A stretch of 64,000 nt of DNA from Gammaproteobacteria bacterium (GCA_021156325.1 JAJNDI010000001.1:30816-94815), one strand, 5' to 3'; positions 3,001 through 12,000 are shown, counted from the stretch's first letter. Program-made: the numbers.

Positions 3001-6000
3001 AGATCCAGACATTACAAGATTCTTGCACCAATAGTGTTCGCAGATGAAAATGTGAGTTTTTAGTACGAAGTGGATTGTAGCTGCCTGCGCAGCACTGTTA
3101 AGCCTTGAAAGTTTGCATCTTGCAATGAAACGATATAAAAGGAAATAACAAACCATCATGGCAAAAACTAAAAAAGACTATTCTGCAACGGTGATGATTT
3201 CTTTTATTTTGCTGGTAGGCTGTTTGTCTAATATTGCCTCGGATATTTATGCGCCTTCTATTCTGGCTATCTCAATAGCTTTAGATACCCCTATTCGTCA
3301 TGTACAAGTCAGTATGGCGTTATATATGTTAGGGATGACGCTCTCCTTGTTTATCTACGGCCCTTTGTCAGATGGGATGGGGCGAAAATGGCCTTTAATG
3401 GCAGGGTTAAGTATTGCATTCACGGGTACGCTCTTATGTGTATTTGCCCCTAATATCCATCTCTTGTTATGGGGGCGTTTTATTCAAGGCTGCGGTATTG
3501 GCGCAGGAGCGGGCTTGTGGCGCAGCATTTTTCGCGATGTGTTTACCGGCGATGAATTGGCAAAGTATTCTTCTTATTTGACGATAATCCTTATTTTTGT
3601 CATCCCTTTGTCTCCCACGGTGGGGGGATATCTACAACAATATTTCGGTTGGCGATCGGTTTTTATATTTTTGCTTTTATACATTGCTATCTCTTTATGG
3701 GTTATTGGCGTTTATTATCGGGAAACCAGCCGCCATCATCACCGCCAGCGCTTGAAAATAGCTTTTATCGCCAGTGCTTTTAAAGAATTACTCACAAGCC
3801 GCCTTTTTATGGGATATGTTATTGCTGTACTCCTAACATTTGGCGGCATTTTTTCCTGGTATACCGTGGGTCCTGTTTTATTGATCCGTGAGCTGCACAT
3901 AACCCCCGTCGCTTTTGGCTGGCTTAATTTAGTAGTTGCGGCTTCTGCCATGAGTATAGGGGGCATTACCAATGCACGCCTAGTTAAGCATTATGGAGGC
4001 AGGAAACTGATCCAGATAGGCTGGGGAATTAGTTTGTTGGGGGGATTCTTGCTGTTATTATCGCAAGCTGATTGGGGTATAACAACGACAGGCATTTTGA
4101 TTTCTGCCTTTTTATTTGCATTAGGCTCAACTTTCGTTTGGCCGAATTCTTTTGCCGGTGCCCTGACCCCTTTTGGGCATATTGCAGGTTACGCAGGCTC
4201 TGTTTACAGCGGTTTACAATTAGGGGGAGGCGCTTTAATGTCAGGCATTGCCTCTCATACCTCTGCTCACAGCCAATACCCTTTGGGAATGATCTACACA
4301 GGCTGTGCGCTGCTTGCGTGGACTGCATATCATTTTTTGGTGAAACCTGTTATTGCCAAAACCCCGCCTCAATAGGATTTAATCACTGGCTACCGTAGCC
4401 GCCGTCCAATGTCAATTCTTCCCCGCACAAAAAGGAATTTTGAGGGCTGGCAAGGAAGGTAACGCATCGGGCGATATCCTCTGGCAACGCAAAGCGTCCC
4501 ATAACGGTTTTACGCAAAATCTTTTCAGATTGTTCAATGGTTACTTTTTCTTTGAGATCATCAGTCGCTAGTAAATGGCTTGCAATTGCATTGATCAAAA
4601 TTCCTTCTGAAACGACCTGGGGAGCCAATTTTTGCAGGAAATCGAATTCGCCCCAAGATGTTTTGTGAAATGCCGGTTTGTTTTTTAGTAATAATTCAAT
4701 ATCGGTTTCATTGTTAATTAAAATAATTCTGCCCCAGGCTCGTTCCGTCATTTTCTTAATAATCATGTTATTGAATGCTTGAAAATTGTCTAATACTTCT
4801 TTTTTTCGATTGGTCTTGGAGTTAACCAAAAATGTCTCTGTTTGCACAACCAGGATATCGATTTTTAAATTTTCTATTTCTTTAGCGCGTTTTTTGACTA
4901 TATTGCTATTGGTAAAATCCATATATAAATGGGGAAAAGATAAATCATGTTCGCAATAAGTTCTATCGCTGCTAGAAACAAATACACTGGCACCGGCAGC
5001 TTGCAAGTGCAGAGCAATGGCTTGCCCCATGTTGTTTGTGCCGTGTATGACTAAAGCGGTCTTTCCATTTAATAACATTGCTCTAACCCTTCTTAATTTT
5101 AATCTTTATACAGGAGGTAGCAATTCTTAGACCAATTTATTTTGCTTTATAAAATAAACAGTTATATAGAGGGATGCAGGAAAAAATACCTGTTCTTGCC
5201 GCATTGCGGCAATCTTGATAAGATTATTTAAGACCAGGCATTTTTGAAAGGAAATCTTTTATGTCGGGTTCTTCTTCTCTTAATGCTGAATTTATGCAGC
5301 AGTACAAACTGATTGGACGTCCTCACCACGGGGTAGTAAAGGTTCAAGATCTTAAAACCGGTGTATGCCACCGATTACCGGTAAATCGCCTGCTTCAATT
5401 CCCGGCGCTCATGGAAGCCTTTACCCCAGAAGACAGGCAGCGGCTTAGCTTTCTCTCAGAAAAATCTCAAAAAAAATAGTATAGATCAAATTATGTACTT
5501 CGCGATCAGTTTTTTATTCTGTTTAAAGCCAGGTTTTAATCTGTACATCAATAAGATAAATCGAATTGATCAATTTATATGCATTGATTTTGTTGGCAAT
5601 TTTGATGGGCAACGTCTATTACTTTAAGACGGCAGTGTCAATACTATGACATGGCGTTTAAACATACTCAAAGCGCGAAGAGTATAAAGCAAAGGTTGTC
5701 AAAGATGAATAGCCAGCAATATCAAATTCTTGTGATCGATGATGATTCCAAACGCAGCCAACATTTGTTAGGAATCTTTCAGTTTCTTGGAGAACGTTGT
5801 GTTACTACTGATGCTGCTCATTGGCAAAACGCCGCTAAATTGCCCGAAAATTTATTATCAGTCTTTATTACTGCTGATTTCAACTTGGAAAAAACACGAG
5901 ATTTAATGACAGCTGTTTCGGGACGCTGGCCTCAGCTGCCGCTCGTCTTATTAGCAGATGAAGCTGTCCACCCCAAGGAAGAATTGTTTTTACTGCAAAG

Positions 6001-9000: not shown

Positions 9001-12000
9001 TGAGTCTTTTTTGCTAAAAAAACGGAGTTCTTTGCGCCGATCAGGATAACAAAATAAAACATTTCCCTGACTACCCCAGTCGCTCAATACAATACGCCTA
9101 TGATATTGCCCGGAAGACAGAAAAATCTGTAGATTAGGTCTATGAGTATGTCCATGAATAAGGAGATCGGCTTCATAACGACTCATCATCTTTTGTATCG
9201 CTTTCGGATTGGCATCCATGACGCTAAGCGATTTGTTTAGTTGAGCATATTGGCTTTGTTTTCGCATACGGTGTCCAATAGCGCTCCTTAAGCTTAAAGG
9301 GAGCGCTAAAAATATTTTTTGCAGCCAGGATTTTCGTACAGTTCGTCTTAATATCTGATAGTTTCGATCATCAGTACAGAGTAAATCACCATGAGAAAGC
9401 AGAACCTTTTCGCCATAAAGGTCAATTACTGCCGGATCACTCAATAATTGACTTTGAGTTGATTCGATAAAGCCTTTGCCCAGCAAGAAATCTCGATTAC
9501 CATGCATGATAAAAAGACTAACACCGGAATCAGAAAGGTTTTTTAATTGTTGGACAACGTCTAAACAAAACGGGGAATTATCATCATCACCAATCCATTT
9601 TTCAAACAAATCGCCTGCAATATATAAACGTTCTGTATTGCCCTGAATTTGCTTTAACAGATGCACAAACAAAAGATAGGTTTCTTCATGGTTTGAATCA
9701 AGATGCAAATCGGAAATAATCGCCGTTCGTATGATCACGTTTTAATCTTCTACCAAGACTGCTTTTTCGATGATCACATTCTCAAGAGGTACATCTTGAT
9801 GACCTGCACGGTGAGTCGTTTTAACCACTTTTATTTTATCCAGGATCTCCATGCCCTTAATGACTTTGCCAAAAACACAATAACCCCATCCTTCGATAGA
9901 AGCTTCTTTAAAATCCAGAAAATGGTTATCGGCAACATTAATAAAAAATTGAGAAGAGGCAGAGTGAGGATTGCTGGTGCGTGCCATTGCAATAGTGCCT
10001 TTCACGTTTTTTAACCCATTCGCGGCTTCGTTTTCAATCGCTTCTTTGCTGGGCTTTTGCTGCATCTCGGGTGTAAAGCCGCCACCTTGAACCATAAAGC
10101 CATTAATCACACGATGAAAAATCGTATTATCATAAAAACCATCATTGACATAATCAAGGAAATTGGCAACCGTCACAGGGGCTTTTTCAGCATCAAGGGC
10201 CAAGACAATATCACCCAAATTCGTTTTTAAAACAATCATTCCATTCTCCTCATGGCTGGTTTATTTTTAGTCATTTTTGGCAGCCTCTCTACATTCAGGG
10301 GGCGCCTCCGGTATGATAACGGGAATCCTTAGTAAAACCCAGAGAATCCGGTATGCGAAATTCTATTAAAACGCGTTTTTGTCCCAGCCCTACGGGGTAT
10401 GTCCATGTGGGTAATGTGCGTACAGCCTTATTTAATGCTTTATTTGCCTTGCATGCGGGGCAAGGGCAGATGTTATTGCGGATTGAAGACACTGATCGCA
10501 GCCGCTCTTATAGCGAATATACTGATAGTTTAATTGCCGATCTGCGTTGGTTAGGCATTCCCTGGACAGAAGGAGCAGGATGTTCTCCCGAAGGGAGTAA
10601 TGGTCCTTATTGGCAATCTGAACGTCAATCTGTTTATGATCAATACTATGATCAATTGATTGAAACAGGCAGGGCTTACCCCTGTTTTTGCAGTGAAGAA
10701 CAATTGGCTTTAGCTCGAAAGCTGCAGCGCGCAGCGGGCAAGCCGCCGCGTTATGCCGGTACTTGCCAACACTTAAGTGAAGCCGTTATTGCAGAAAAGC
10801 GCCTGCAACAGATACCTGAGAACTTGCGTTTTCGGATCCCCGATAAGCATGTCATTGAATTTATCGATTTGGTGAAAGGCAAACAACATTTCTCAAGCGA
10901 TGATATCGGTGATTTTATTATTCGCCGTGCAGACGGTACTTCGCCCTTTATGTACAGCAATGCGATAGATGATGCGTTGATGGGGGTGACTCATGCGTTG
11001 CGAGGCGAAGATCATTTAACCAATACACCGCGTCAATTATTGATTTTAGAAGCCCTGGGGCTGCGCTCTCCGCAGTATGGACATATTTCTTTAATTTTAG
11101 GCGATGATAAATTGCCTTTATCAAAGCGCAATGGCAGCCGCAGTATTGTACAGTTGCGCGAAGAAGGATATTTACCGATTGCTATTGTTAATTATATTGC
11201 GCGCCTGGGACATTACTATGAAAGTAATGCATTGATGGATTTAACGCAGTTGGCAGAGGCTTTTGATCTGTCGCATTTAAGTTCTTCACCGGCACGTTTT
11301 GAATTAAGCCAATTGCAATTTTGGCAAAAAGAAGCCTTAATGCAATTATCTGCCAACGATTTTTGGGAATGGTTACCATCTGGCGTTAAGCAACAAGTGC
11401 CTGCTTCTGATCAAACTGTTTTTGTTCAATCTATCCGATCGAATGTTCTGTTTCCAAAGGATGCTTTGGGCTGGACAGAGTGTATTTATAATGAAGCATT
11501 GACCTTTGATGAACCTGGCCAGGCAGTGCTGCGGGAAACATCCTCACAATTTTTTGAAGAAGCGATCAGGGCGGTTAATCAGCAGGGAACGGATTATACG
11601 GCTATCACCGAAGTGTTAAAACAAGCTTGCGATGTTAAAGGTAAAGCGCTGTTTCAACCTTTACGGGTTGCTTTAACAGGGCACTTGCACGGCCCTGAAT
11701 TGGCGCCACTGTTAACCTTGATTGGTAAAGACAGGGCTGTATCACGCTTTCAAGCAGCAAAGGATTATAGTCGGCAATGATCGTCATTTACGATACTTTA
11801 ACTAAACAAAAAAGACCTTTTGAACCTTTGGAAAAAGGCAAGATTAAGATGTATGTTTGCGGTATGACCGTCTATGATTATTGCCATATTGGCCATGCGC
11901 GCGTGATGGTTGCTTTTGATGTGATTCTGCGATATCTACGATTCAAAGGTTATGAAGTGACGTATGTTCGCAATATTACTGATATTGATGACAAGATCAT

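Follow-up and report, generated by a model that had tools for sequence, protein, structure and literature searches.

In a 64-kb window (64,000 nucleotides, the whole stretch analyzed here) of a 104,640-bp contig, taken from a metagenome-assembled genome (MAG) that NCBI labels 'Gammaproteobacteria bacterium', three genes on the + strand follow one another with intervening gaps of 129 bp and 17 bp. They encode the master sigma-54 activator FleQ, a FleR-type sigma-54 activator devoid of its receiver domain (REC), and FliA, the flagellar sigma factor (sigma-28). Our view of the genome is that of this window. On balance we lean towards regarding the locus as a regulatory remnant of a polar-flagellum cluster of the FleQ/FleS-FleR/FliA type, with a circuit that now serves genes that are probably non-flagellar. 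This reading builds on the observed gene identities, on the losses of domains and genes, on a conserved promoter-like site and on loci in related genomes that are reduced to graded extents. That flagellar regulators are kept after a cluster has been reduced is known; what is new is a FleR without receiver and without kinase that stands between fleQ and fliA. A sequence-only reading of the window had already described two tandem sigma-54 activators followed by fliA in one direction with short gaps, and had called the layout unusual. The open reading frame (ORF) coordinates together with Pfam and NCBIfam searches confirm the first of these statements, and comparison with related FleR/FlrC loci confirms the second.

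Identity of the three genes

The first protein had been read as a FleQ-type activator with a degenerate receiver and an intact GAFTGA loop, and this holds. Pfam recognizes a FleQ domain (62.2 bits, cut-off 22), Sigma54_activat (252.5), AAA_lid_14 and HTH_8 (39.1), the GAFTGA loop occupies residues 238-243 (nt 6362-6379), and the protein aligns end to end with Pseudomonas aeruginosa FleQ (8P53, E = 1e-144). In the public gene calls translation begins at Met19 (ATG at 5705), which is likely the true start and yields a protein of 480 aa. The Walker A motif is encoded at 6221-6244, and LFRS (6125-6136) and ARN (6251-6259) are present as well; we take the latter two to be the motifs with which P. 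aeruginosa FleQ binds cyclic di-GMP. The third gene is fliA, as had been proposed: its product passes two NCBIfam models for FliA (NF005413, score 250.5 against a cut-off of 201; TIGR02479, 237.6 against 189.6) and contains all of the sigma-70 regions r2, r3 and r4 in Pfam. The trio corresponds to public records MCD6055077-79, which carry the names zraR, fleR and fliA. Some caution with this annotation is advisable, in that FleQ is labelled 'zraR' and the receiver-less protein is given plain 'fleR'.

The second protein, of 337 aa, is composed of Sigma54_activat (229.6 bits), the lid and HTH_8 (39.4 bits; residues 294-329, approximately 8156-8263). No Pfam match to Response_reg was found in it, and the AAA+ domain begins after only about 25 residues. 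It contains Walker A (GESGTGKE, 7424-7447), Walker B (LLLDEI) and, at residues 97-102 (7565-7582), a GSFTGA L1 loop. An in-frame TAA at 7244-7246 closes the reading frame upstream, as do further stops, with four in-frame stops in all within the 129-nt gap; the missing receiver is therefore genuine and no artefact of start-codon choice. Although fleQ and the receiver-less fleR share a frame, the same 129 nt and four stop codons (examined over 7100-7300) separate them, and the two are not fused. The locus is also found on a JGI contig (L081) that differs by 1 nt over 5.9 kb, and the 337-aa protein occurs at 99% identity in two other public samples, making three samples in total. An exact look-up of the window protein returned no entry. 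Both the absence of a receiver and the GSFTGA sequence of the sigma-54 contact loop had thus been read correctly.

To place this protein we took the best 120 matches from a homolog search against 5.8 billion clusters. Apart from three receiver-less clusters, these are proteins of the FleR/FlrC type of 430-484 aa that have a REC domain and share 57-64% identity with the query, several of them named FlrC or derived from Legionella. The top match in the PDB is the AAA+ domain of Vibrio cholerae FlrC (4QHS, E = 2e-97), and the start of this crystallized, receiver-less fragment almost coincides with the start of the natural 337-aa protein. Among alignment columns that are near-invariant (conserved in at least 97% of 117 full-length relatives), the protein keeps 112 of the 120 it covers. 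Three of the changes lie in the AAA+ core and are all conservative (V58I, R164K and L183I), and the other five fall within the first 13 residues. No frameshift or internal stop is present in the gene. Since the top homologs, the best structure and the conserved columns are all those of FleR/FlrC, the second protein is, by sequence, a FleR/FlrC ortholog that lost its receiver.

The sequence-only reading had considered placement among the PspF, HrpS and FleT clades. This identity was rejected: the PspF match scores 205 bits vs 329 for FlrC, the NCBIfam PspF models remain far below cut-off, and the protein has an HTH domain of its own. Its neighbors are fleQ and fliA, unlike the PspF or HrpR-HrpS type, on which an adjacent negative regulator (PspA, HrpV) acts in trans. 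No equivalog cut-off of NCBIfam was reached by the protein (the FlgR model scores 277 bits, cut-off 750), and no model named FleR was among those returned. In a neighbor-joining tree of 121 FleR/FlrC cores, which is crude, the protein occupies a long lone branch outside the Legionella clade, and the receiver-less forms are polyphyletic. A scan of species-representative genomes with the 337-aa protein gave a best match of 62% identity and no close relative. The N-terminus, 'MSDDG...RPIIQHDTTHKI', may be a relic of the REC sequence 'VEDD...KPF..L..KI', but this is only suggestive, as it depends on the placement of very short segments by MAFFT; alternatively, the start of fleS may have become fused to the fleR linker.

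The GSFTGA loop

Many engineered substitutions in GAFTGA impair activators of the PspF/NtrC type, and the sequence-only reading had regarded the A-to-S change of the second protein as a weakening of the loop. If so, the change would disable or retarget the sigma-54 contact, and the protein would use another sigma factor or only modulate. However, the same GSFTGA sequence forms the native loop in FleR of P. aeruginosa, which works as a sigma-54 activator at flgB and flgF (PMC10696123). It is among the loop variants that preserve activity and is found in DVU2394 and DVU3220, two enhancer-binding proteins (EBPs) with mapped targets (PMC4641369), and in EBPs of Cereibacter sphaeroides (PMC11999139). 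Within the family, ten full-length FleR/FlrC clusters among the 119 matches P0002-P0120 have it, four of them named Legionella entries (L. nautarum, L. gresilensis, L. taurinensis and one multispecies Legionella entry). Among the best 150 representatives (50% identity) the loop reads GSFTGA in 15 and GAYTGA in 12. The A-to-S change thus recurs in this clade, a functional activator included, which by the standard that the sequence-only reading itself had set refutes a weakened loop; nothing points to a different sigma factor. On these comparisons GSFTGA is a normal loop of the FleR family and says nothing against sigma-54 engagement; a loop defect is contradicted and, in our estimation, highly improbable.

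Losses relative to the canonical arrangement

To define the canonical order, we assigned the ORFs of 80 FleR/FlrC loci drawn from species-representative genomes. Upstream sequence sufficed in 77 of these, and in 76 of the 77 fleS is the gene immediately upstream of fleR; in 63 loci fleQ, fleS and fleR are contiguous. The sequence-only reading had contrasted the window with a dispersed fleQ / fleSR / fliA layout; it was right that the arrangement is unusual, but 'dispersed' is wrong for fleQ and fleSR, because these are contiguous in nearly all relatives. fliA was found within 10 kb downstream of fleR in only one surveyed locus, that of a flagellated comparator (L025), where the order is fleQ-fleS-fleR-fliE-fliF-fliG-fliH-fliI-fliJ-fliK-fliA. 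Subtraction of fleS, the receiver and fliE-K from this series gives exactly the gene order and orientation of the window, which departs from its relatives by precisely these losses: that of fleS (the 129-bp gap between fleQ and fleR contains no kinase remnant), that of the receiver and that of the structural genes between fleR and fliA. The one exception to the fleS-fleR order (L058, 9461-10981, an Ectothiorhodospiraceae MAG) has a full-length fleR followed by ORFs of 111, 552 and 336 aa in the positions of fliE, fliF and fliG, a correspondence of sizes only, and no recognizable fleS or fleQ within 9 kb upstream of fleR.

Comparison of IleS provided a rough position for the organism. The nearest relative is 71% identical and is encoded on a closed contig of 2,447,832 bp (the sister genome); the next are 68% and 62% identical, and identities close to 60% were found with entries that bear the names Legionellales, Thiodiazotropha and Chromatiales. 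By this measure the organism is on a deep branch and is not a Legionella. In the sister genome (L085; ENA ERZ24900291 ctg4025c, 1697048-1718508) a fleQ whose product is 61% identical to that of the window has only non-flagellar neighbors; as in the window, scpA-scpB-rluB is close by, and this locus has neither fleR nor fliA. Two regions of the sister genome were read (L085 and L084), and they also contain a 1645-aa helicase/Sel1-repeat protein beside fleQ and an ankyrin-repeat protein near ileS; these eukaryote-like domains are a hint of host association.

Four further loci are reduced as well. The locus designated L167 (GCA_021773335.1, JAJFKG010000005.1, 10001-17392) consists of fleQ, an inserted AAA_14/DUF4143 gene, fleS (PAS-HisKA-HATPase), fleR, a FliM/N remnant, fleN, fliA and then housekeeping genes. 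Its FleR, the core of which is 71% identical to that of the window protein, has 378 aa, with REC and AAA+, and ends before the HTH; the remnant is an 87-aa ORF in which a FliM-like N-terminus (LSQEEIDTLL) is joined to half a FliN C-terminal domain. In L086 (Logan SRR31214410) fleQ, 59% identical to that of the window, is followed after 150 bp by fleR (2888-4048) with no fleS between them. The REC of this FleR is recognizable (55 bits) but degenerate, with DD of the acidic pocket changed to AD and the conserved T to A, and the gene has the look of a stage between the canonical and receiver-less forms. In L083 (Logan SRR21359034, 3127-8222) the order is tyrS-rpoN-99-aa ORF-fleQ-fleR, the last encoding a receiver-less protein of 352 aa with a GAYTGA loop, and no fleS or flagellar genes occur on this 9-kb contig. 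L082 has a receiver-less FleR of 357 aa that falls inside a Legionella-like clade. Of the REC domain, the FleR proteins of L082 and L083 retain strand beta1 and helix alpha1, after which the sequence goes straight on to the linker, the mark of in-frame internal deletions. No remnants of fleS were found in the gaps of the window, L082, L083 or L086. Among the best 150 representatives about 12-14 are receiver-less proteins of roughly 310-370 aa whose match with the query runs as far as its C-terminal region. Loss of the receiver therefore recurs in the FleR/FlrC family and is polyphyletic; it took place independently at least three times, by deletions that stayed in frame and left start and linker in place.

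These comparisons bear on whether the receiver-less fleR is a functionless, decaying relic that is heading for loss, with the lone fleQ of the sister genome as the end point. The sister locus itself fits such a course, as does the decay under way in related loci (the fliM/N remnant, the FleR without HTH); FleR is dispensable for motility in Pseudomonas putida according to the literature, and P. aeruginosa FleR deprived of REC has no function in vivo (PMC10696123). The gene in the window, however, bears few marks of decay: its frame is intact, the near-invariant columns are largely kept with only conservative changes in the AAA+ core, a ribosome-binding site and a promoter-like site are retained (see below), and the same 337-aa protein recurs in the three samples. 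In addition, the three independent receiver losses were in-frame and spared start and linker, a pattern that suggests that what remains has been selected for. We therefore consider a mere relic quite unlikely.

Two fusion proteins of 717-724 aa, P0254 (L169, 10001-12175) and P0370, were also recovered. In each, a FleQ domain with AAA+ (GAFTGA) and lid but without HTH is joined to a second module that comprises a FleR/FlrC-like AAA+ domain, lid and HTH, without REC; this second module has a destroyed L1 loop and a Walker B that reads D-N. The L169 fusion gene lies 3' of fliM-N-O-P-Q-R-flhB-flhA-flhF-fleN-fliA-DUF2802, a true flagellar cluster. Several further proteins of 640-820 aa with two Sigma54_activat domains were seen in the same search. 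Natural fusions of a FleQ without HTH to a FleR without REC, one of them in a flagellar cluster, raise the possibility that the receiver-less FleR of the window assembles with FleQ into a mixed AAA+ ring, so that the adjacent genes specify one composite activator, like HrpR/HrpS or FleQ/FleT; a heteromer with FleQ had been suggested in the sequence-only reading. Co-operating EBP pairs are documented in the literature for HrpRS and others, and P. aeruginosa FleR without REC is unable to form an active heptamer alone (PMC10696123). Yet the elements that the FleR-like half of the fusions has lost are all intact in the window protein, and the FleQ of the window keeps its own HTH. With Walker A, Walker B, GSFTGA and HTH preserved, an autonomous ATPase fits the window FleR better, and we judge the mixed ring to be unlikely.

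Promoter and expression signals

Candidate sigma-54 promoters were scored as weighted matches to TGGCAC-N5-TTGCA (maximum 19.5). A site in the gap between fleQ and fleR (TGGCCTGGCTTTTGCA) scores 17.5, with GG at 7226-7227 and GC at 7238-7239, a value reached by 0.18% of shuffles of the gap; in the whole window, both strands included, only seven sites score as high or higher, and two of these are intergenic. The sequence-only reading had asked for GG-N10-GC promoters ahead of both fleR and fliA: a promoter-like site is present upstream of 7277, whereas no sigma-54-like site was found upstream of fliA at 8308. Among canonical loci, a site of at least equal score occurs within 200 nt 3' of the fleQ stop codon in 30 of 63, as compared with 0.44% of shuffles. 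The same element is present in L086 (TGGCCTATGTTTTGCA, at +76 from the fleQ stop) and in L167 (TGGCGTGGGTTTTGCA, just upstream of fleS). In Pseudomonas, fleSR is a class II operon that depends on FleQ and sigma-54 (PMC6120874, among other literature), and the sites that follow fleQ fit such a promoter by sequence.

A sequence resembling a FleQ box is found 52-53 nt 5' of the sigma-54 element in all three of these loci, at aligned positions. In the window it reads GACAGTAGTTTGAC, lies 53 nt upstream of the -24 element and agrees with the proposed consensus GTCaNTAAAtTGAC at 10 of 13 specified positions; the L167 counterpart, GCCAATAAATTGAC, agrees at 12 of 13. As the paper that quotes this consensus calls it unreliable (PMC6120874), we treat these elements as only a lead. 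Further downstream, a GGAG ribosome-binding site (7267-7270) is situated 6 nt before the fleR ATG, and fliA has its own ribosome-binding site, AAGGGGG. From these signals we predict a fleR-fliA transcript that starts near 7250, 37 nt ahead of the fleR ATG, with fliA probably co-transcribed with fleR. At its stop region (8992-9003) fliA shares 12 bp with the 3' end of a metallophosphoesterase gene that runs convergently (8992-9738, - strand), and no terminator-like site was found between the two genes. A single further intergenic sigma-54-like site in the window has the score of the one before fleR (TGGCGCTGCACTTGCA, 26780-26795, - strand). It lies about 390 nt upstream of an ORF of 422 aa without a Pfam match (25121-26389, - strand); it could be a sigma-54 target, or the interval could hold a small RNA or a leader.

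Table 1. Features of the fleQ-fleR-fliA locus (positions counted from the first letter of the window)
Feature	Position	Strand	Basis
fleQ (FleQ/FlrA-type master sigma-54 activator)	5651..7147	+	Pfam FleQ, Sigma54_activat, lid and HTH_8; alignment with 8P53
FleQ-box-like element GACAGTAGTTTGAC	7158..7171	+	10/13 specified positions of the proposed consensus; weak lead
sigma-54 (-24/-12) promoter-like site TGGCCT-GGCTT-TTGCA	7225..7240	+	weighted consensus match; kept in relatives
fleR without receiver (REC): AAA+, lid, Fis-type HTH	7277..8290	+	Pfam; FleR/FlrC homologs
fliA (sigma-28)	8308..9003	+	NCBIfam FliA models passed; Pfam sigma-70 regions 2, 3 and 4

Surroundings of the locus

No flagellar structural or chemotaxis genes are among the scanned predicted genes of the 64 kb, no fleN, the gene of the FleQ antagonist (FleN/FlhG), is present in the window, and no flgM, the gene of the FliA anti-sigma factor, was seen in it. 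In the positions where relatives have flanking flagellar genes (fliD/fliS 5' of fleQ, fleS, and fliE-K after fleR) the window has housekeeping genes instead. The other scanned genes are housekeeping genes or have no Pfam match, and include scpAB, an rluB-like gene, gltX, cysS, folD, an lpx cluster, dnaE, accA, tilS, pyrG, kdsA, eno, ispB, obg, murJ, ribF, ileS, lspA, clpB, prfC, valS and pepA; an Rfam scan of the window returned three tRNAs and no rRNA. A metagenome scan with FliA gave a best match of 40% identity and no related locus.

Flagellar genes of Legionella are dispersed over several clusters. The organism of the window could still be flagellated, with its structural genes elsewhere. 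The trio would then form a simplified hierarchy in which FleR has been freed from the FleS assembly checkpoint. This explanation concerns the targets of the circuit and is compatible with any of the mechanisms considered here, whether FleR is autonomous, part of a mixed ring or a relic. The view of 64 kb out of a 104.6-kb contig leaves it room, and FliA and FleQ look fully intact. On the other hand, it has to contend with the replacement by housekeeping genes of just those genes that flank the regulators in relatives, and with the collapse of the cluster in related lineages. We consider it a possibility to be taken seriously, albeit a doubtful one.

Two other features of the window are recorded here. 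Just 5' of fleQ is a 72-aa ORF without a Pfam match (5261-5479, + strand); it has a homolog 5' of fleQ in L086 (35% identity over 52 aa, E = 5e-15) and does not match the small ORFs 5' of fleQ in L083 or L167. A stretch of lower GC content (34694-40160; 0.38-0.40) with ORFs that lack Pfam matches (34897-36024, 36304-36867, 37144-38020 and 39705-40058) is bracketed by tRNA-Pro(TGG), tRNA-Arg(TCT) and tRNA-Pro(CGG), and may be a small island.

A model for the reduced circuit

We propose that deletions removed fleS, the FleR receiver and the structural genes between fleR and fliA, and left fleQ, a receiver-less fleR and fliA. In this model FleQ, a predicted sigma-54 activator that has kept LFRS and ARN, would activate the site at 7225-7240, the presumed former fleSR promoter, and this promoter would drive the fleR-fliA transcript. 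The receiver-less FleR may then act as a sigma-54 activator free of phosphorylation control, with an output set by its amount, because its ATPase, its family-normal GSFTGA loop and its own HTH are intact. FliA, in turn, would direct sigma-28 promoters. With no flagellar structural genes left at its flanks, the trio would most likely control non-flagellar genes, as in non-flagellated Legionella, in an organism that presumably has no flagella.

Several points weigh against this model. A P. aeruginosa FleR construct without REC (AAA+ and DNA-binding domain) fails to complement a fleR deletion, and REC is there a positive regulator that stabilizes the heptamer (PMC10696123), so that a FleR with no receiver may on its own have little or no activity. 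Promoter and operon are both no more than predicted, and the FleQ-box consensus on which the upstream element is read is the one considered unreliable. No match to a sigma-28 promoter (TAAA-N14-16-GCCGATAA, at most one mismatch) was found within the 64-kb window. Finally, flagellar genes, rpoN, flgM and fleN could be elsewhere in the genome, outside the 64 kb in view. With regard to the first point, a higher concentration of FleR may push assembly, and the AAA+ domain of FlrC alone forms heptamers (PMC10696123). With regard to the wider plausibility of the model, non-flagellated Legionella keep fleQ, fleSR, fliA and fleN (PMC5655016).

A bolder version would be a flagellum-independent cascade from sigma-54 to sigma-28, in which FleQ and the receiver-less FleR jointly, possibly as a mixed AAA+ ring as in the natural fusions, switch on FliA and genes for host interaction or transmission, the signal input having moved from the FleS assembly checkpoint to FleQ. 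We offer this as a conjecture that is more likely to be wrong than right by some distance.

Comparison with known systems

The closest well-characterized system is the FleQ-FleS/FleR-FliA hierarchy of P. aeruginosa (FlrA-FlrB/FlrC-FliA in Vibrio), with which the window shares a full-length FleQ, a FleR/FlrC-like second protein and a canonical FliA. In this hierarchy FleR/FlrC has an N-terminal receiver with a phospho-acceptor Asp and, with sigma-54, turns on class III (rod/hook) flagellar promoters. The GSFTGA loop of P. aeruginosa FleR has its counterpart in the window, as does the class II fleSR operon in the sigma-54 promoter-like site after fleQ. Unlike P. aeruginosa, the window has neither fleS nor REC, fliA is the next gene after fleR, and structural genes are absent from the vicinity; moreover, REC is needed there for FleR function (PMC10696123). 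A natural FleR without receiver conflicts with the P. aeruginosa finding that assembly of FleR needs the receiver, which makes the locus a test case for how activators of the NtrC type escape phosphorylation control.

Other systems share individual features. FlgR of Helicobacter and Campylobacter is likewise a flagellar sigma-54 response regulator that tolerates the loss of domains: it has by nature no DNA-binding domain, and when its receiver is deleted it becomes constitutively active. The FleR of L167 also lacks the HTH; the window protein, in contrast, keeps its HTH and lacks REC, the opposite loss, and FlgR is only a distant relative. FleT of C. sphaeroides has neither receiver nor DNA-binding domain. 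The pairs FleQ/FleT and HrpR/HrpS (Pseudomonas syringae) resemble the window in that adjacent EBP genes run in the same direction and the second lacks a receiver, and mixed rings are documented for HrpRS in the literature. By sequence, though, the second protein of the window is FleR/FlrC and not HrpS/PspF, and in contrast to FleT it has an HTH of its own.

The proposed persistence of regulators beyond the structural genes has a parallel in non-flagellated Legionella (the L. longbeachae clade, L. israelensis, L. oakridgensis and L. londiniensis), which retain fliA, fleQ, fleSR, fleN and flgM in various combinations and in which FliA controls virulence-associated genes (PMC5655016). In L. longbeachae FleS/FleR is reported as a retained two-component system (PMC5655016), whereas the window has neither kinase nor receiver; its three regulators are also packed into a single locus. 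The series of related genomes shows a flagellar cluster that decays by module: kinase, receiver, DNA-binding domain and structural genes disappear, and what persists are the transcription factors. Should the targets of the trio be non-flagellar, the observation from Legionella that regulators outlive flagella because they also govern virulence or transmission traits would be extended to a deep-branching, uncultured and possibly host-associated lineage.

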